A DNA stretch of 59,919 nucleotides, from UHGV virus genome UHGV-0342645; one strand, written 5' to 3'. The notes under the pieces are model-generated. The model searched no databases. It had not been told where the DNA came from and saw only the letters and a program-made list of their open reading frames with translations. The position numbers were made by a program, and so were the translations under genes. Origin of the DNA: a virus. This document shows positions 10,200 through 54,928 of the stretch, piece after piece. Positions within the stretch are counted from its first letter, which is position 1, and every line of letters starts with the position of its first letter.

Positions 10200-10320
10200 A
10201 TGGGTCGGGTTGCGCGGCTGGGCCTGCGTGGGTCGGTGTGCGCTGTGCGAGCTGTGCGCCACGCTGTGCGCCTGTTTCACCCGAGCTAATGCATTACCAT
10301 TGCCTATATGCATTAGCTCG
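10200..10320. repeat. GC-rich GCTGTGCG direct repeats followed by a 13-bp perfect palindrome
   Basis: gtgtgcgctgtgcgagctgtgcgccacgctgtgcg then CGAGCTAATGCAT-N13-ATGCATTAGCTCG (10282..10320) in a non-coding stretch. Confidence 0.6.
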
Positions 10321-17309: not shown

Positions 17310-17618
17310 ATGAAAAAGTTAACAACCGTATTAATGTTTACGACTGCTTTTATGTTTTCTGCTAGCTGCATTAGCGCAACTAAGGATTGCCAAAAAGCGG
17401 TCACTGAGTTTCAGTCAAAGTTGCAACTTAAACGAACTGAATTGCAGACTAGCAACGACATTGCATTTTGTACAACTATTCAGCGTAAAGCTCAGCACGC
17501 AACAGTTGATGAAATTATGGAACCATTGAAAAACTTTAAAAACCCGGAACGTAAGTACTATGTGTCTATTGCCACTTATGCTTTCGTAACACGGTCTTTA
17601 GCGGAGGATTTAAAATGA
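17310..17618 (+). CDS. secreted or periplasmic small protein
   Basis: MKKLTTVLMFTTAFMFSASCISA looks like a signal peptide; GAGGTG RBS; 102 aa. Confidence 0.45.
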   Translation: MKKLTTVLMFTTAFMFSASCISATKDCQKAVTEFQSKLQLKRTELQTSNDIAFCTTIQRKAQHATVDEIMEPLKNFKNPERKYYVSIATYAFVTRSLAEDLK

Positions 17619-18814: not shown

Positions 18815-19417
18815 ATGACTGACGTATTAAATAACATGCACACTATTTCTATAACTGATTCTAGCGTAACTGATTCTAGCGTAACTGTTACACCCTTTGC
18901 GCCAACTCTTCTCGGGGTGAAGCGGTTAACTGATACGGCAATTCTACCAGCGTTCGCTACTGCTGGGGCAGCTTGCTTTGACCTGCACGCGGATCTCAAA
19001 AGTGAAGACGGTTGTGAACAAATCATTTTCTCTTACGAGCACATATTCCGCACAGGGTTGGCGTTTGATATCCCTAAAGGGTATGCGCTTATGGTCTATT
19101 CCCGTAGTGGACACGGATTCAAAAATGACGTGCGTTTGGCAAACTGCGTGGGCGTTATTGATAGCGATTACACTGGCGAAGTTAAAGTTAAGCTTACTAT
19201 TGATCATGATGGTAGTTTTACCGTTAGTCATGGTGATCGTATTGCGCAAGCTATGCTTATTAAGGTGCCTTGCGTGCAACTGGTAGAAGTAGACGAGCTT
19301 AAGACTACTGAGCGCGGTGCTAATGGCTTCGGGTCCACTGGTACGTCTGCCAATGTGGTTACAGCAGAGGAAGAAGCTGCTACGCATCCAATTATAACTT
19401 CCCGCTATTTGAAATAG
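18815..19417 (+). CDS. dut: dUTP diphosphatase
   Basis: dUTPase motifs RSGHGFK, VIDSDYTGEV and GDRIAQ; N-terminal tandem SSVTDSSVT from a 15-nt direct repeat. Confidence 0.8.
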   Translation: MTDVLNNMHTISITDSSVTDSSVTVTPFAPTLLGVKRLTDTAILPAFATAGAACFDLHADLKSEDGCEQIIFSYEHIFRTGLAFDIPKGYALMVYSRSGHGFKNDVRLANCVGVIDSDYTGEVKVKLTIDHDGSFTVSHGDRIAQAMLIKVPCVQLVEVDELKTTERGANGFGSTGTSANVVTAEEEAATHPIITSRYLK

Positions 19418-48492: not shown

Positions 48493-48909
48493 TTACATCC
48501 TCCAAATGTCGGTAATTTCAATCTTACTTAATGGAAAAGTTTCAACACCGTTTGGACCCATAGCCCAAACAACACCCGACCATAATACGCCAGCGGTTAA
48601 ACCTAAGTCACCATTAAATGTAACCACATCTCCGCGCTGCGCATATTTCTTATCGACACGCTGCGTGATGTATACATCCAACATTGTAGGCAAATACGTG
48701 CTCTTGGCTTTTTCCAGCATAAATCTCTTGCTTCCAAGCTCTGTGCTGTACTGACCAATTATCCCGTCTGCAATACTAGTCCCGTATTGTGCGTCTAAAC
48801 ATTTAGCGACAAATATACAGCAATCATTTTGCCCCCAAACAAAAGGGACTTCCTTTAGCTCGTTTACTGTGGTTAATAGGCGTGTCTGCCACCCTGCGGT
48901 TTTATTCAT
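48493..48909 (-). CDS. minor tail protein (K-like, NlpC/P60-like Cys)
   Basis: Internal start MNKTAGW overlapping the upstream stop; WGQNDCCIF...motif; position before the J-like gene. Confidence 0.4.
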   Translation of the reverse strand: MNKTAGWQTRLLTTVNELKEVPFVWGQNDCCIFVAKCLDAQYGTSIADGIIGQYSTELGSKRFMLEKAKSTYLPTMLDVYITQRVDKKYAQRGDVVTFNGDLGLTAGVLWSGVVWAMGPNGVETFPLSKIEITDIWRM

Positions 48910-49486
48910 AGTAGAATCCCGGCGCATCTTTCTTACTTCCCCAAAAGATTGAACGTTCTGCCATTTGTGCAACATATCTAAAAAAGCGGTCCCCTGGATG
49001 TAACCGCTGTTGACTTTCATCCGTGTAGCGGTCAGGCAATCCCTGCGACCATCTTTCAAATACGTTAGCAACAACATAACTTAATGCGTTCTGTTGACCC
49101 GCTTGCATTGCAGTATCTGTAATAAAACCTTCAAAGAGAACGTTAGCACCAGTTACAACACCTTGACTATTTAATACCGCAATGTAGCATATAACTGTAC
49201 ATCCGATTACTTCTTCGTTCAACGTCTCACCAACAAGACTCATATCAAGTCCGTTAAGTGTCATAGACATGGTACTTGAACTTGTGCTGTTTTCTTCAGT
49301 AACCGAGCCAACGTCCCCTAACGTTCCAACTCCAAGAAACGTTTGACCGTCAATAACAACAACTCCGGTCCCTGTATGGACTCTAGTTATACCAGAAGGG
49401 AAATGTATTTCCGCAGCAAGGACAAGCTTAACATCCGGTTGATCCATGGCAGTTAAAACACTATTGCTAAAAGGGCTGAACAGCAT
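48902..49486 (-). CDS. minor tail protein (L-like)
   Basis: 194-aa ORF in the TMP to J interval; TAATG overlap with the upstream gene. Confidence 0.45.
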   Translation of the reverse strand: MLFSPFSNSVLTAMDQPDVKLVLAAEIHFPSGITRVHTGTGVVVIDGQTFLGVGTLGDVGSVTEENSTSSSTMSMTLNGLDMSLVGETLNEEVIGCTVICYIAVLNSQGVVTGANVLFEGFITDTAMQAGQQNALSYVVANVFERWSQGLPDRYTDESQQRLHPGDRFFRYVAQMAERSIFWGSKKDAPGFYYE

Positions 49487-50070
49487 TAGAAAGCCTCCGA
49501 AAACTTTAAAGTAAATGAGTTGTTGAAAGCTGGTTGACGTTTGACGCCGTTGGTATTGTCGGATAAGCGAAAGGCGCCTTGTGGTTTCTGCGTTTCAACT
49601 TTAGCACCATTGGGGGGAATAGTTCTCAGCATTGGCGCAATATTTAAGATAACGTTACCAGCACCATCGCTCCATGCGTCCTCAGTGACCATCTTTAACT
49701 CACCGTTCACGGTAATATAGTCCCCTTCCCATAAGACTTTTCTGTTAGGTGTCCAACCTTTAGTCGCCAATGTAGTTCCTGTGTTGCTTGCACCATTAAC
49801 CACAGGTGTTCCCATAGGAGGTCTGCCCCAACGTCCAAAATCTTGAAGCATAATACGACCAGATTTACCATCCAGCTTAACTAGAGTGGATTCTAATTTT
49901 CTAGATTGCCAATCGTTTAAATTGTTAAAAGATAAAGTTGCCTCCCATCTAGACCCAGGATAGGAGACAGTTTGTGTAGCCCCATTGAAGGGGCTAGTGA
50001 ATTCCACGGAGTTAGATACCAGATACCACTCCATCGAAGATGGTCTAAGTTCCTCAGGCCAGTCAAGCAT
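49486..50070 (-). CDS. minor tail protein (M-like)
   Basis: 194-aa ORF immediately downstream of the tape measure gene. Confidence 0.45.
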   Translation of the reverse strand: MLDWPEELRPSSMEWYLVSNSVEFTSPFNGATQTVSYPGSRWEATLSFNNLNDWQSRKLESTLVKLDGKSGRIMLQDFGRWGRPPMGTPVVNGASNTGTTLATKGWTPNRKVLWEGDYITVNGELKMVTEDAWSDGAGNVILNIAPMLRTIPPNGAKVETQKPQGAFRLSDNTNGVKRQPAFNNSFTLKFSEAF

Positions 50071-50073
50071 ATG

Positions 50074-53000
50074 TTACCCCATTGCAGTTCTACGAATTGT
50101 TCCTCGGGAAGCAAAGTCTGCAAGAACCTTGTTATATCCCTGCTCTGCACCATCACGAGCGGCTTGCTGCATTGCTTGCTTGAGCGCTGCATCGCCGTTC
50201 CCTTGTACAGTAATATTCTGAATAATGGTAACACCGCCTGACATATTCACGCCACCTTGTTGCGAAGCTTGGCTATCCAGGAAGCGATTTAACTTGTCAT
50301 TAGACGGAGCATTAAGCACACGTTCACCTTTATCCAATAACCATGTACCTTCGCGCGGAACATTATCAATACCGTCATGTGCCATACCAGCGATTGCTAA
50401 GCCACCCACGGTAGCGGCTGACGCATAACCCATAGCTTTCACTATACCCGCCATAGCTGCGCCCATTGTAGCACCGCCTTGCTGTGTACCCCACGCAAGC
50501 GCTGCTGATGCCGCTGTCTCCGTGTTAGCAAGGATTGATGGGATCTGCATTGCTTTCTGTGCTGCAAACATTGCCTTATAAATAAAGTTCTGTTTACTAA
50601 CACCTTCTTCCAGCCCTGACAAGATAATACCCAATGATTCCTGAGAAAAGGATATCATTCGGTTCATAAGAACTTTATCCAGGTTTTCCCTTTCCATGCT
50701 TGCTTTCTTCAGAACTTGAGTTTTGGCATCCTCATAAAGTTGATAATAAGCTAGGTCATCCGCTCGCTGTTTTGCATTAAGCTCTGTAATCTTTGTATTT
50801 TGCTCGTACGCGATTTTTTCATAGTCTGTCATACCTTCATCTAACAGACCCTCAGCAAACTTACGATTCTTCTTACGCTCGTCCAGTTTCTTTTGAGCTT
50901 CTTCTGCATCGTAAATTGCAGCAGCAAGACTAACGACTTCTGCTTTTTCCGCAGCAGTTGCAGACGCATTGAGCTTATTGAGGGCGGCAGCTTGGGCTTT
51001 CGCTTTGGCGTTTTCCTTAACCCCTGTGGTTACTTCGTTAAGCTTGTTTCGTAAATTGTCAATAACCTTAGCGTTTTGTTGATCCGCCCTAATAGCGTCT
51101 TTTGTAGCTTTGGTTCGGTTTCTCTCCGCTTCCTCAAGATCGTAGTTCTTGCCAAGAGCTTGGGCTAAATCTTGAGCATATTTAACAAGCTCTTTAGCGG
51201 ATTCGCTTGTTGCCTCTGAGCTAACGTCCTGACCCATAGCTACTTTGCGAATTAGACTTCCGTAGGTGTCCGCATCCTTACCTAAAGTTTGATACAACCC
51301 TTTAAGTATTTCAGCTTGACGCGCATTACCCGCACCTTTAACAGTATTAACATCAATTTCACGGTTAACGTCACCTAACTGGCCTTTAAAACGATCAAGG
51401 ACATTTTTGTCAATAATTGGTCCGGTGTTAACGTTAAGCACAGCCTTCATATCGGCAGCAAGCTGACGAGCTAACGGAATTATCTTCTCGATAGCGGGGC
51501 TTGTCATTTCCAATACGTTATTGTAACGACGTTGCGCTTCTTCCGCACGCTCAGCAGCAAGCTTGACATTATCCGTAGCAATTTGTAAGTTCTTCTCAGC
51601 ACTAGCAGTATCTCGACCGGATGCAGCTCGACGCTTCAATTGTGCTTCATAGAACTTCTGCGTTTCCGTTGCAGATTTAAGAGCGGTTTGCTCGCGCTTC
51701 ATTTGCTCTTCAAGTTCCGGAAGTATTGCTCTAGCTTTAACAGCATTAGCCGCAAGCTGAGCTTCCGTCATTTGCATCAATTTATCGCGTACTGTGTCAA
51801 CGCTATCTGCAAATTGATTATTTTCAGCACGACCCGCTTCCAGCGACGCTTTATAAGAGTAAATTGCACCCGCTGCCAGCATTGCTACACCAACAGGACC
51901 GCCAATTAACCCCATAGCACCGCGCAGCACGCTCATTGCTGTAGCTGCTCGGCTTGCGGCTGGTACAGTTGCGTTAAGCGCAGCATTGAGCGCTTGCCGC
52001 GCTTGCACGTCCGCCACAATTGCCGCAGAATGCGCACGGGTAGCATTGATAAGCGCAAGACGAGCACCTGCTTCCGCTGCCGTACCCTTAGCAACCGCTA
52101 AGGACCCTCGAGCAACCTGTAACGCTGCAAGCGAAGCCGCACGATCCGCAGCCGCTTTCTGTGCGGTAACGCCAATAGAGCTTCGCATCACCGCCGTAGT
52201 TGCCGCAGTTTGTGCAGCCTCCATCTGAGATGCTTTTGCAGCAGCTATAGACGCTTTAGTCTTAGCAAGCATTGCCGTAATGATACGGGCGGTGATTACT
52301 GTGGCTAAAGCTGAACTAACCGTTACAACCGTTCCTAAGTTTTCGGATAATGCAACAAACGTCTGCCCCAATGCAGCGACCGCACCTTGAGTCTTTTGGG
52401 ATTCGCCCATAAACTTAGTCAGGTTGTTTGTTGCGATCGTCCATTGCTGTTTGAACGTTGGCATAGTGCGGCTAAATTCTTTATCAATTGTATCCGCAGC
52501 AGCAGACAACGATTTGATAACCACATCGGCTGTTAACTTGCCGCTGTACGCCAGCTCACGCAATTGTCCAATGGTAACGCCTAAAGAATCGGACATGATT
52601 TGAGTTAAGCGCGGAGCTTGTTCTGCAACAGAGCGGAATTCATCCCCGCGCAAAACACCGGATGCCATCGCTTGCGAAAACTGAATAAGAGCAGCACTTG
52701 CTTCGTTGGACGTTGCACCAGAAACGATCATTGCTTTGTTAATTGTTTCCGTGATGCGCCCGAGCTCCATAGCTGTCATACCAGTATTCTTCATTACACG
52801 CTGGAGGCGGGAGTACAGAGTTGCAGTCGCTTCTAAGCTTGTACGTGACCGCTGGGCAATATCAAACACGCGTTGCTGCGCATCCGCAACGGTTTCATTA
52901 CCCGTACGAGCCAGTTCAAGTTTGTTGGTGAGGATAGTCCAGGAGTCCGATAGCGAAATAACACGGTTAATGGTGTCGACGCTAATCATTCCTACAATTG

Positions 53001-53190
53001 CAGCATCTAAACGACTTGTGACAGTTGCAAGTTCGTTAGATGTGTTAGACAATGTTTTATAGCTGGAGGTAACACGTTGAGCAGACCGCTCCGCTGTGTC
53101 ACCTGTACGCGCTAAGTTCCGCAACATAGAGTCCGCGGTACTAATCCCTCTCGCGTCAACTCTGATTACTAGCGAAGCGGTTTCGGCCAT
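50074..53190 (-). CDS. tail tape measure protein
   Basis: 1038 aa, Ala-rich coiled-coil, preceded by a frameshifted chaperone pair; AAGGAG RBS. Confidence 0.8.
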   Translation of the reverse strand: MAETASLVIRVDARGISTADSMLRNLARTGDTAERSAQRVTSSYKTLSNTSNELATVTSRLDAAIVGMISVDTINRVISLSDSWTILTNKLELARTGNETVADAQQRVFDIAQRSRTSLEATATLYSRLQRVMKNTGMTAMELGRITETINKAMIVSGATSNEASAALIQFSQAMASGVLRGDEFRSVAEQAPRLTQIMSDSLGVTIGQLRELAYSGKLTADVVIKSLSAAADTIDKEFSRTMPTFKQQWTIATNNLTKFMGESQKTQGAVAALGQTFVALSENLGTVVTVSSALATVITARIITAMLAKTKASIAAAKASQMEAAQTAATTAVMRSSIGVTAQKAAADRAASLAALQVARGSLAVAKGTAAEAGARLALINATRAHSAAIVADVQARQALNAALNATVPAASRAATAMSVLRGAMGLIGGPVGVAMLAAGAIYSYKASLEAGRAENNQFADSVDTVRDKLMQMTEAQLAANAVKARAILPELEEQMKREQTALKSATETQKFYEAQLKRRAASGRDTASAEKNLQIATDNVKLAAERAEEAQRRYNNVLEMTSPAIEKIIPLARQLAADMKAVLNVNTGPIIDKNVLDRFKGQLGDVNREIDVNTVKGAGNARQAEILKGLYQTLGKDADTYGSLIRKVAMGQDVSSEATSESAKELVKYAQDLAQALGKNYDLEEAERNRTKATKDAIRADQQNAKVIDNLRNKLNEVTTGVKENAKAKAQAAALNKLNASATAAEKAEVVSLAAAIYDAEEAQKKLDERKKNRKFAEGLLDEGMTDYEKIAYEQNTKITELNAKQRADDLAYYQLYEDAKTQVLKKASMERENLDKVLMNRMISFSQESLGIILSGLEEGVSKQNFIYKAMFAAQKAMQIPSILANTETAASAALAWGTQQGGATMGAAMAGIVKAMGYASAATVGGLAIAGMAHDGIDNVPREGTWLLDKGERVLNAPSNDKLNRFLDSQASQQGGVNMSGGVTIIQNITVQGNGDAALKQAMQQAARDGAEQGYNKVLADFASRGTIRRTAMG

Positions 53191-53597
53191 TATCTTCTCC
53201 TTTTTCTTCTACCTTTATTTTGATTTTGCATTTGACTTTCCATGAGTTTAGCATTTTGTTCAGCTTCTGACACGCGCTTTTCAAGCCATAGCTGCCGCAG
53301 TATTTCGCATTCGTACGGTTGAAGATGTAAGCCCATTGTCACTTGATAGCTGTGCAATTCTGTATAACTAAAATCTCCTCCAGTGTAGATATCATCAAAT
53401 AAAGTAGATAGATATTCGAAGCAAAGCGGTATTTCCTTTTCCCGATATTCTTTAAGCTTAGGTGGCGTCTTACCAGACTGTTCCTCAACCTTTTGCAGTT
53501 GCGATAATAAAGAAGATCCCCCGCCGGGGACTTTACTATTTAGTTCCCATTGGAGGATCTTCTTATCAATTAACTGTCTGCGCGCTTTTAGAAAAAA
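53190..53597 (-). CDS. -1 frame extension (T-like part) of the tail assembly chaperone
   Basis: Slippery T_TTT_TTC heptamer at 53597..53591 just before the chaperone stop; the -1 frame stays open for about 133 codons and ends at TAA overlapping the tape-measure ATG (TAATG). Confidence 0.6.
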   Translation of the reverse strand, partial: FFLKARRQLIDKKILQWELNSKVPGGGSSLLSQLQKVEEQSGKTPPKLKEYREKEIPLCFEYLSTLFDDIYTGGDFSYTELHSYQVTMGLHLQPYECEILRQLWLEKRVSEAEQNAKLMESQMQNQNKGRRKRRR

Positions 53598-53995
53598 TTA
53601 CTATCTTTAGCGGCAAATACGTTAAGGTCTTCTCGGACAGTTGGGTTCTCCGTTAAGAACTCAAACACGTTGTCAACGGTTGGAGGCTCGTCAAACGTCC
53701 AACCTGCTACAAGATTACACAGTGAACGGGTAAGGATGTCTTCCTTCATAGCATCCGTTACTTCCCCGTCTTTACCCTGCATAAGTGCCAACAGTTGACG
53801 TTGTGCTTTCAATTCTGCGTCACGATACTCTGTGCAGTAACGGCTACGAATGTAGAGTTTTTCGCCAGTGTCGCCTACACCAGGAATAACCACATTCATA
53901 GGCTTAGTGTTTGCCGGATCATTTGCCCGGCTCACAGTTTTAAAATCACGGAAGCTTTTAGCTACTGCAACTTTGGCTTTTTTGGTGTCGGTCAT
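53588..53995 (-). CDS. tail assembly chaperone (G-like)
   Basis: 135-aa acidic ORF between the major tail protein and tape measure, ending in the slippery site. Confidence 0.6.
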   Translation of the reverse strand: MTDTKKAKVAVAKSFRDFKTVSRANDPANTKPMNVVIPGVGDTGEKLYIRSRYCTEYRDAELKAQRQLLALMQGKDGEVTDAMKEDILTRSLCNLVAGWTFDEPPTVDNVFEFLTENPTVREDLNVFAAKDSNFF

Positions 53996-54004
53996 TTCTT
54001 ATCC

Positions 54005-54928
54005 TTATGCTCCCGCTAAAACGCGGGTAATTTTGATAGAACTTGCGCTTGTTGGGTCCAGCAATCCGCGGTAGCCCATATTAAGCATGATATCGCCTTC
54101 ACCGTCAATAGGACGCGGAGCCTCAGTGAATTTCACGCGAGGGATTTCCACAGTGTATTTTTGTTGCGGATTGCTTGGGTCAATCAGATCAAACTTGATT
54201 GAAGTTTCCACTTCATCCAGATACTTCTTACGCAGTTTGTTATCCAGGAAGTAAACGTTAGCTGTACCAGTTACAGCACGGCGACCAGCAGACGGTTCAA
54301 TGGAGAACTTCGAGCCAACAACGAAGCGCGGAGTGATATCGTTTTCAACGGTAAGACCGATTTCCGTAATAACGCTAATTTCCTGACCGCCTTCCAGCAA
54401 GCGACCGGAGAAGCCGTCCATCGGTGAAGAAGTTGTACGAGCTTTGATGGAAGCACCAGCAGGAAGTGATTCAGCAATTTCCATCGAGCGACCAACAATG
54501 CCGAACTCTACTGTGGTCATGTTTTCAGCAGACAATGAGAAAGTCATGCTGTTAACTTCACAACCGCGATAGATTGTGTATTTACCTGATGGCAGATCTG
54601 CGTTATAGTCTACAAAAGTAAATGACTGGCGAACAATACCACCTTTAAGGACGTTGTCCTGCCATTCACCGCGCAGTGCTGCCGCAATGAGGTCGTCAAA
54701 CGTACCGAAGGACATTTCGCCTGTTACCGTACCTTCAACGCTTCGAGCGCCAAGACGGAAGTCTGCGGTTTCTGCGTCATCACGCAGTTCTTCAGACTCC
54801 AGCGTCGCAATGTTAATATCCAGACCGGAACTCGTTACACGAAACGGGGTAAACTTCGCGCTTGCTGGAGTTGTGTTGCTCACATCTTCTTTGACGTAAT
54901 AACACGAATAACGTGAACCTGTAGCCAT
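54005..54928 (-). CDS. major tail protein
   Basis: 307-aa ORF directly upstream of chaperone and tape measure; Thr/Ser-rich. Confidence 0.55.
   Translation of the reverse strand: MATGSRYSCYYVKEDVSNTTPASAKFTPFRVTSSGLDINIATLESEELRDDAETADFRLGARSVEGTVTGEMSFGTFDDLIAAALRGEWQDNVLKGGIVRQSFTFVDYNADLPSGKYTIYRGCEVNSMTFSLSAENMTTVEFGIVGRSMEIAESLPAGASIKARTTSSPMDGFSGRLLEGGQEISVITEIGLTVENDITPRFVVGSKFSIEPSAGRRAVTGTANVYFLDNKLRKKYLDEVETSIKFDLIDPSNPQQKYTVEIPRVKFTEAPRPIDGEGDIMLNMGYRGLLDPTSASSIKITRVLAGA

Follow-up and report, generated by a model that had tools for sequence, protein, structure and literature searches.

The G/GT arrangement is said to have been defined by Xu, Hendrix and Duda in 2004. In phage lambda GT and G are made at a low, fixed ratio of about 1:30, and tail assembly depends on both. 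Between its tube gene and its tape measure gene lambda has two overlapping open reading frames, the second of which, T, lacks an independent start; besides the short product, a fusion with a C-terminal extension is made by a -1 shift on an X_XXY_YYZ heptamer close to the 3' end of G (Levin, Hendrix and Casjens, 1993; Xu, Hendrix and Duda, 2004; 2013; 2014; as cited in PMC5009743). The locus described here, on the minus strand of a 59,919-nucleotide phage sequence (UHGV-0342645, referred to as the window), shares the gene order, the heptamer near the 3' end of G and the startless T frame, and would yield the same two kinds of product. It differs from lambda in its heptamer, which is U_UUU_UUC rather than G_GGA_AAG, and in that the heptamer directly adjoins the stop codon of G. 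No similarity to the Pfam families of lambda G and T was found, a Pfam scan at E <= 0.1 yielding only PF23812, on T. The element would work in the manner of lambda G/GT, yet judged from its sequence it is not a member of the lambda families.

A closer comparison is provided by PHROG 569 and PF23812, which represent the chaperone family of Queuovirinae-like siphophages (9g, JenK1, Vid5, EC151 and PSTCR4). The whole PHROG 569 profile is covered by the fusion from the window, and the same -1 arrangement with a T-rich slip motif is present throughout the family; in contrast, most records of the family list T as an independent ORF that begins at an arbitrarily chosen TTG or ATG. PHROG 569, a chaperone family, is mislabelled 'tail length tape measure protein'. 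The frameshift signals of E. coli dnaX and of IS3/IS911 also resemble the locus, a slippery heptamer being followed in each case by a stable hairpin. Stimulators of this heptamer-stem-loop type are known to act at a spacing of 5-9 nt, whereas the spacer in the window is 22 nt and one within this range is present only in a distant clade of relatives (6 nt).

The window originates from a Seuratvirus siphophage, a Seurat-like E. coli phage. It is 99.6% identical to phage CSP1 and shares 97.5% DNA identity over 1 kb with phage Seurat (KM236243), the T protein of which is 100% identical to that of the window over 127 residues. In KM236243 the joined CDS of 806 nt has already been annotated, with a ribosomal slippage note at record position 10236, which corresponds to position 53594 of the window; the two sequences share the heptamer, the extent of the joined CDS and the nucleotide at which the slip is placed. 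The two Seurat records, CPT_Seurat13/14 (AIW03877.1 and AIW03876.1), carry the product name 'tape measure chaperone', which is the only entry for the locus in the Seurat genome paper. G/GT frameshifting belongs to the textbook features of long-tailed phages, and the exact site in the window is already known from the annotation of Seurat.

The slippage annotation in Seurat is itself a prediction, and the literature yielded neither a frameshift rate nor an experiment in which GT had been detected in Seuratvirus or Nonagvirus. In CSP1 and CSP1C, the nearest relatives, the two parts are entered as separate genes or hypothetical proteins. The practical value of the locus is one of annotation: most GenBank records of the genus and its relatives split the chaperone into G and a truncated small ORF with an arbitrary start, and the correct product would be the 268-aa joined CDS.

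The gene order on the minus strand, as assigned by Pfam, is tube protein (Phage_tube_2), G, T and tape measure (TMP_3). The tail tube (major tail) gene (54005..54928; Phage_tube_2, E = 2.7e-43) adjoins G on the upstream side, and the tape measure gene (50074..53190, 1038 aa; TMP_3, E = 6.2e-59; PHROG 339, E = 2.1e-173) starts with an ATG at 53190, preceded 8 nt upstream by AGGAG within the 3' end of T. Gene G (53588..53995), a tail assembly (tape-measure) chaperone of 135 aa, is named 'tape measure chaperone' in the records of Seurat, CSP1C and GottfriedDienst. The G part alone matched PHROG 569 (E = 2.8e-26) and PHROG 313, 'Tail assembly chaperone' (E = 3.2e-11). The G domain gave no Pfam match at E <= 0.1, and a sequence search of the PDB returned no related solved structure, the best match (E = 0.42) being unrelated.

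The 3' end of G reads GAT AGT AAT TTT TTC TAA, with the stop codon at 53590..53588. The slippery heptamer T_TTT_TTC (53591..53597, minus strand) abuts this stop codon in X_XXY_YYZ phase with G, its 0-frame codons being TTT (53596..53594) and TTC (53593..53591). The -1 frame has TAG TAA directly 5' of the heptamer, therefore the overlap open to a shift is 10 nt, and a scripted scan found this overlap filled by T_TTT_TTC. The background of in-frame X_XXY_YYZ motifs in the window is 0.0031 per codon (67 in 21,519 codons), and the combination of an open -1 frame and a heptamer exceeds chance expectation. T_TTT_TTC was the sole heptamer in the window with a long -1 extension lacking a nearby start of its own; AAAGGGT (19076..19082), which lies 201 nt before its 0-frame stop and has a 42-codon -1 extension, was listed only. 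TTTAAAA at 17609 and TTTAAAG at 49510 were rejected as frameshift sites, because the gene that follows each of them is an ordinary one, started by an ATG and preceded by a GGAGG. No SD-like upstream stimulator was visible in the 17 nt 5' of the heptamer, in the window or in relatives. U_UU.U_UU.C is one of the heptamers on which -1 frameshifting in E. coli exceeds 0.1% even when no stimulator is present, and it is employed by IS elements (PMC4066793).

Past the slip the -1 frame reads CTA AAA GCG ... AGA AGA TAA, giving a T extension of 133 sense codons (53190..53590, minus strand; LKARRQLID...GRRKRRR), the stop codon of which (TAA, 53192..53190) shares one base with the tape-measure ATG (TAATG). 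No ATG, GTG or TTG occurs in the T frame for 77 codons past the G stop, the first start-like codons being TTG 53357 (77 codons past the G stop) and ATG 53336 (84 codons). With TAG TAA 5' of the heptamer and no start over this distance, only a shift on the heptamer can express T. T matched Pfam PF23812, Phage_TAC_18, over residues 170-239 of the fusion (E = 4e-9), where its 36.9 bits exceed the gathering cut-off of 27, and aligned with positions 130-256 of PHROG 569 (E = 4.8e-47). Joined in silico, the G-T region (53190..53995, minus strand; 806 nt) encodes a 268-aa GT (...KDSNFF/LKARRQ..., the stroke marking the junction), residues 1-268 of which fall on positions 11-256 of the 256-position PHROG 569 profile in a single stretch (E = 1.2e-77). 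The first-pass annotation had described a chaperone ORF ending AGT AAT TTT TTC TAA, a canonical slippery site at 53597..53591, a -1 frame open for about 133 codons and a TAA sharing one base with the tape-measure start. Re-reading of the minus-strand ORF (53995..53588), verification of the heptamer phase and a re-translation free of internal stops bore out this description, and the span that had been assigned to the element is exactly that of the joined CDS.

Conservation was assessed in 10 phage genomes (nine with separate annotation) and 53 IMG/VR loci. T lies -1 to G behind a T-rich slip motif in 62 of these 63 related loci, with T identity falling as low as 24%; the relation was kept in 10/10 of the phage genomes and 52/53 of the IMG/VR loci. 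The heptamer is T_TTT_TTC or T_TTT_TTA in all relatives belonging to the clade of the window, while its distance from the G stop ranges from 0 to 42 nt, and it is thus the heptamer, not the stop, that constitutes the conserved element. Distant relatives have A_AAT_TTT as their slip motif, in the same phase, a point in favour of ribosomal (tandem tRNA) slippage. Differences in the T frame at codon positions 1/2/3 numbered 7/5/29 against Skure and 20/7/47 against STP-SP5, and synonymous codon differences outnumbered non-synonymous ones (23 vs 9 and 34 vs 21 respectively). The other two frames of the same region gave 1-7 synonymous against 32-56 non-synonymous differences. Purifying selection acts on T all the way from the slip site, and only in the -1 frame. 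The sequence features of a G/GT locus were found in the gene position, the in-phase slippery overlap, the startless and conserved T and the conservation despite divergence; the G/GT arrangement that had been proposed for this locus is upheld at the sequence level by synteny, by the 62 related loci, by the colinear match to PHROG 569 and by the join in Seurat KM236243.

The locus is very probably a tail-assembly-chaperone recoding site, at which a -1 ribosomal frameshift yields G and GT. In the mechanism proposed, for which we infer the ribosomal nature of the shift, its rate and the binding partners, the majority of ribosomes would terminate at TAA and produce G (135 aa), and a minority would move one nucleotide back on U_UUU_UUC. 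The tRNA-Phe on UUU in the P site and that on UUC in the A site could both re-pair with UUU in the -1 frame. Shifted ribosomes would continue on CUA AAA GCG... and add 133 residues, giving the 268-aa GT, and would stop one base into the tape-measure start codon. If G and GT function as they do in the lambda model (PMC5009743), the tape measure protein, as presumed client of the G domain, may be coated by G and by the corresponding part of GT, while the T domain may recruit the tube protein, its presumed partner, so that the tail polymerizes to the measured length; neither G nor GT would remain in the virion.

The slip site is a homopolymer, with T6 in the window and T7 in 9g, K4PH164 and others, and RNA polymerase may itself add one U in the T6 run, in which case the edited mRNAs would encode GT in a single frame. 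The product of such slippage (...NFFLK...) would be identical to that of ribosomal frameshifting, and since the protein sequence would be the same, insertion of a U by the polymerase is not separable by sequence analysis alone. Transcriptional slippage is, however, very unlikely. Efficient slippage by bacterial RNA polymerase normally needs runs of ~9 or more A/T, and the A_AAT_TTT motif or the 4-5 T of distant relatives are too short for this and suit tRNA re-pairing. The motif is also always held in X_XXY_YYZ phase with the G frame, and the covarying stem of the distant clade, 6 nt past the motif, has the classical layout of a ribosomal stimulator.

T might alternatively be a small gene in its own right, with translation starting internally at TTG 53357 or ATG 53336. 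Several GenBank records treat it in this way; those of CSP1C and GottfriedDienst have a 'tape measure chaperone' of 48 aa, that of Skure has a TTG start, and the mechanical ORF listing of the window places ORFs at 53190..53357. The 77 codons ahead of the first start-like codon are nevertheless conserved as protein (down to 33-40% identity), and they include a GKTP motif, invariant at T residues 42-45, and show third-position bias. Homology of T, both to PHROG 569 and by tblastn, begins at the slip site with T residues 1-6; no SD-like sequence is present 5' of 53357 or 53336, and among relatives the first start-like codon varies in position from 4 to 78 codons past the G stop. We consider expression of T from an internal start extremely improbable. 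That the open -1 frame and the heptamer have arisen by chance, with G and the tape measure gene separated by non-coding sequence, has a negligible probability in our assessment, given the Pfam and PHROG matches of T, the tblastn matches to T in 87 phage records, the codon-position bias and a 10-nt overlap filled by a heptamer of such low background frequency. This chance reading may be regarded as already refuted by homology and by the substitution pattern. Programmed -1 ribosomal frameshifting is the explanation that we prefer.

A stimulatory structure downstream of the slip site had been envisaged, and a strong RNA hairpin was located inside the T frame (53568..53505, minus strand), but not at the classical distance; the window has no stable structure at 5-9 nt, and the nearest strong hairpin is this one, starting 22 nt past the heptamer. 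Its stem pairs 53568..53552 with 53522..53505 (~17 bp, GAUAAGAAGAUCCUCC / GGGGGAUCUUCUUUAUUAUC), and a small hairpin is nested within it. The hairpin is the most stable 70-nt window within 1200 nt, coincides with an inverted repeat (53510-53532 / 53542-53564) and gave an MFE of -36.6 kcal/mol (z = -3.94) in a 121-nt fold. Against a synonymous-codon null the z of the hairpin was -3.3 to -3.5 in the window, and the corresponding structure z was negative in 15/15 representative relatives. The hairpin of close relatives lies 18-35 nt past the slip motif, with arm sequences that differ by lineage. The equivalent stem in the distant clade, which includes the stop codon of G, begins 6 nt past the slip motif and exhibits compensatory changes; the slip site in the clade of the window is situated 7 codons further upstream than in the distant clade. 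RNAalifold gave no consensus structure for an ungapped 12-lineage alignment of the window's clade, because the stems sit in different registers. What can be claimed for this clade is therefore a per-sequence excess of structure and not pair-by-pair covariation.

A search of Rfam with 53100..54100 (E <= 1) produced only two matches, both hairpin-like, below threshold and on the opposite strand. These, to mir-1002 (24.8 bits, threshold 85) and RAGATH-25 (20.4 bits, threshold 49), were judged to be due to chance. It is possible, although we lean somewhat against it, that the hairpin is a selected cis-element of the whole chaperone family and not a by-product of the protein sequence. If so, the linker codons of T would be forced to co-evolve with the hairpin, which would either stimulate -1 frameshifting at unusually long range or have a second role. 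Candidates for the latter are protecting or ending the transcript within a sparsely translated stretch, or blocking the loading of Rho there. The conserved hairpin offers a modest lead on the maximum distance between stimulator and slip site in bacteria. A pattern scan also flagged part of the hairpin (53531..53516) followed by CTTCTTTATT as an intrinsic terminator. This is unlikely to be a conserved function, since the U-tract is interrupted and relatives such as 9g keep the hairpin without any U-tract.

The short tail assembly chaperone gene, G, was located at 53995..53588 (-), encoding 135 aa with the C-terminus ...AAKDSNFF, and its final codons (GAT AGT AAT TTT TTC TAA) agreed with the ending AGT AAT TTT TTC TAA read in the first-pass annotation. 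The slippery heptamer T_TTT_TTC proposed there was also correct in both coordinates (53597..53591, minus strand) and phase, with TTT and TTC forming 0-frame codons in the canonical X_XXY_YYZ arrangement. Re-translation of the -1 frame extension, T, gave 133 sense codons (LKARRQLIDKK...GRRKRRR), the approximate length claimed, up to a TAA at 53192..53190 (-), and the last A of this stop is, as had been stated, the first base of the tape measure ATG at 53190. The tape measure ORF (53190..50074, minus strand, 1038 aa) matched TMP_3 (E = 6.2e-59), and the gene upstream of G (54928..54005, minus strand) is a tail tube gene by its match to Pfam Phage_tube_2 (E = 2.7e-43). TAG TAA closes the -1 frame directly 5' of the heptamer, therefore the G and -1 frames are jointly open over only 10 nt, and the heptamer occupies this overlap. 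Beyond the G stop, the -1 frame meets its first start-like codon, a TTG at 53357, after 77 codons and its first ATG, at 53336, after 84.

For G, the matching profiles were PHROG 569 (E = 2.8e-26) and the 'Tail assembly chaperone' family PHROG 313 (E = 3.2e-11). Translated T aligned with positions 130-256 of the 256-position PHROG 569 profile (E = 4.8e-47) and, above the gathering score, with Pfam PF23812 (Phage_TAC_18). The 268 aa in-silico -1 fusion aligned to PHROG 569 in a single stretch (1-268 on 11-256, E = 1.2e-77), therefore a -1 slip on the heptamer yields a junction that matches the family's colinear architecture. PHROG 569 is a chaperone family, despite its label 'tail length tape measure protein'. 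Neither lambda G nor lambda T has a Pfam family that the chaperone of the window matched, and the element is thus analogous to lambda G/GT rather than a sequence-level member of those families.

Substitutions were counted over the first 108 T codons between the window and phages Skure and STP-SP5. Differences at -1-frame codon positions 1/2/3 numbered 7/5/29 for Skure and 20/7/47 for STP-SP5, and synonymous versus non-synonymous codon changes in this frame were 23 versus 9 and 34 versus 21 respectively, while the other two frames gave 1-7 synonymous versus 32-56 non-synonymous changes. This substitution pattern indicates that the stretch of T ahead of any start codon, which contains an invariant GKTP motif, is translated and constrained.

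Over the 1-kb region, identity was 99.6% to both Cronobacter phage CSP1 and Escherichia phage CSP1C and 94-99% to about 30 further Seuratvirus genomes (Queuovirinae). The record of phage Seurat (KM236243) presents the matching 806 nt as a two-piece joined CDS, 'tape measure chaperone', beside the short CDS, and carries a 'ribosomal slippage (10236)' note; this position corresponds to 53594 in the window, within the heptamer. The Seurat genome paper says only that a tape measure chaperone gene was identified (PMC4342423). In most other records T forms a small ORF of its own whose start is arbitrary, 48 aa long in CSP1C (the closest relative of the window) and GottfriedDienst, and beginning at a TTG or ATG in Skure, STP-SP5, yong3, 9g and others. 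It stands as an independent small gene in many GenBank records, BASEL phages included; such ORFs span 53190..53357 in the window and, in the compared loci of relatives, 2265-2411 (L002 and L003), 1305-1517 (L004), 1205-1519 (L005) and 1811-2155 (L006). These independent-gene annotations lose up to 84 conserved codons.

A tblastn search with the T translation recovered 87 phage records, with identity down to 25-35%. Ten phage loci were examined (Seurat, Skure, STP-SP5, yong3, K4PH164, EC151, Vid5, 9g, PSTCR4 and K9PH25C2), and in every one T lay -1 to G and stopped where the tape measure gene begins. T homology began at T_TTT_TTC (FFLKAR, FFLRSR, FFQIAR...) in all except K4PH164 and EC151, where overlapping T_TTT_TTA and T_TTA_AAG took its place, and the heptamer stood 0, 3, 18 or 39 nt from the G stop. 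T was in the -1 frame in 52 of 53 IMG/VR loci; the motif was T_TTT_TTC or T_TTT_TTA in the close clade, and in-phase A_AAT_TTT or a T_TTT tetramer in the distant clade (24-33% identity).

Synteny, the colinear PHROG 569 match, selection on the -1 frame and conservation in relatives support the G/GT arrangement put forward in the first-pass annotation, and a -1 frameshift on T_TTT_TTC very probably yields the GT fusion. In the best-supported reading two tRNA-Phe would slip -1 in tandem (UUU-UUC to UUU-UUU), after which CUA would be decoded to give ...NFF-LKARRQ.... In E. coli, U_UU.U_UU.C directs >0.1% -1 frameshifting without any stimulator, and IS elements use it among their more efficient motifs (Sharma et al. 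2014, PMC4066793). The TAA adjoining the heptamer could prolong the pause; this adjacency is not conserved among relatives, and so is not essential. In the lambda model the tape measure is bound by G and GT, made in a ratio of about 30:1, the tube protein is brought in by T, and neither G nor GT is present in virions (PMC5009743); by analogy, the chaperone of the window may function likewise.

Polymerase slippage, an independent T start and chance, taken together, are improbable. The in-phase, non-homopolymeric A_AAT_TTT of the distant clade favours slippage of tRNAs over stuttering of the polymerase, and an independent start, the form in which T is commonly annotated, is opposed by the coding constraint on the codons preceding it. 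As regards chance, in-frame X_XXY_YYZ heptamers occurred at 0.0031 per codon (67 in 21,519 codons) over every window ORF of at least 100 aa, and four had a -1 frame reaching at least 30 codons past the 0-frame stop. Those at 17609 (+) and 49510 (-) precede ordinary next genes with GGAGG, ATG and a stop/start overlap, and AAAGGGT at 19076..19082 lies 201 nt ahead of its stop with a 42-codon extension; the 53597 site alone adjoins its stop and has a long extension without a start codon near the junction.

The first-pass annotation had also raised a downstream stimulatory structure. No hairpin was found in the window at the classical 5-9 nt spacing after the heptamer, but a strong one, for which a stimulatory role is a candidate only, starts 22 nt downstream, inside the T frame (53505..53568, minus strand). 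The two arms of its stem, 53568..53552 and 53522..53505, form about 17 bp around a small inner hairpin; folding of 121 nt gave an MFE of -36.6 kcal/mol (z = -3.94 versus dinucleotide shuffles), and the inverted repeat was confirmed independently. In 9g and in each of the four Seuratvirus lineages examined, no other 70-nt window within 1200 nt was as stable, and a prominent hairpin was centred at about the same place in 11 of 12 lineages of the window's clade. Arm sequences and registers differ between lineages (9g, CUUACUGCUCG/CGGGCAGUAAG; Vid5, CAGAGUGGAAA/UUUCCACUCUUG; K4PH164, GUUGCUCCAUUGG/CCCAUUGGGGCGAC), hence RNAalifold returned no common base pairs for this clade. Against a null in which the protein was kept and synonymous codons were resampled sequence by sequence, the first 35 T codons were more structured in 15/15 representatives (<90% nt identity), with z from -1.0 to -3.7 and averaging about -2.2 in two runs, and from -0.8 to -3.7 in another. 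Mean z was only about -0.1 to -1.1 (per-locus values averaged) for control windows placed in G, in the remainder of T and in the tape measure gene, and the excess was specific to the hairpin window of the gene. The hairpin may stimulate frameshifting from 22 nt, or alternatively may have some different function where translating ribosomes are few. Termination is unlikely as its conserved role, relatives having no U-tract.

In the distant clade (L036-L065 from IMG/VR, e.g. L036:1436-1552) the layout is classical: an 8-bp stem begins 6 nt after the A_AAT_TTT or T_TTT motif, with the G stop codon inside it. This stem was paired in 98% of cells, versus 24-56% with the partner slid, and 20 cells were changed on both sides versus 7.0 ± 3.2 in shuffles (0/500 reached 20); compensatory changes include UGA/UCA to UAA/UUA and GC to AU. 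The slip site of the window's clade sits 7 codons further upstream relative to a shared LID motif, which accounts for its longer spacer. The G/GT frameshift is itself a textbook feature, and a genome with 97.5% identity already has this exact site annotated; only the hairpin downstream of the slip site, conserved but shifting in register, adds to the existing record.

A second local excess of RNA structure was seen at about 53056..53160 (-), where the tape measure gene begins (its 5' ~135 nt), with synonymous-null z of -2.1 to -2.7 in the three Seuratvirus representatives; this region (+410 to +470 from the slip site) was among the most stable 70-nt windows in several relatives. The tube protein gene has a GC-rich hairpin (54012..54027, CCCGCGTTTTAGCGGG on the coding strand) at its extreme 3' end, directly ahead of the stop codon, which the scan called terminator-like solely for the opposite (+) strand. 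Three ORFs of exactly 194 aa follow the tape measure gene (48493..50070, minus strand). At 49504..49510 (-), 15 nt before the stop of the first (50070..49486, 194 aa), stands an in-phase T_TTA_AAG, a heptamer highly prone to shifting in E. coli; the second ORF, in the -1 frame, brings its own GGAGG and, within a TAATG overlap, its own ATG, and Seurat lists it as a separate gene, therefore the heptamer is probably a coincidence. The second and third (49077..48493) share 176 nt, and since Seurat annotates a shorter gene of 417 nt, the long version probably reflects an upstream in-frame start and no real overlap.
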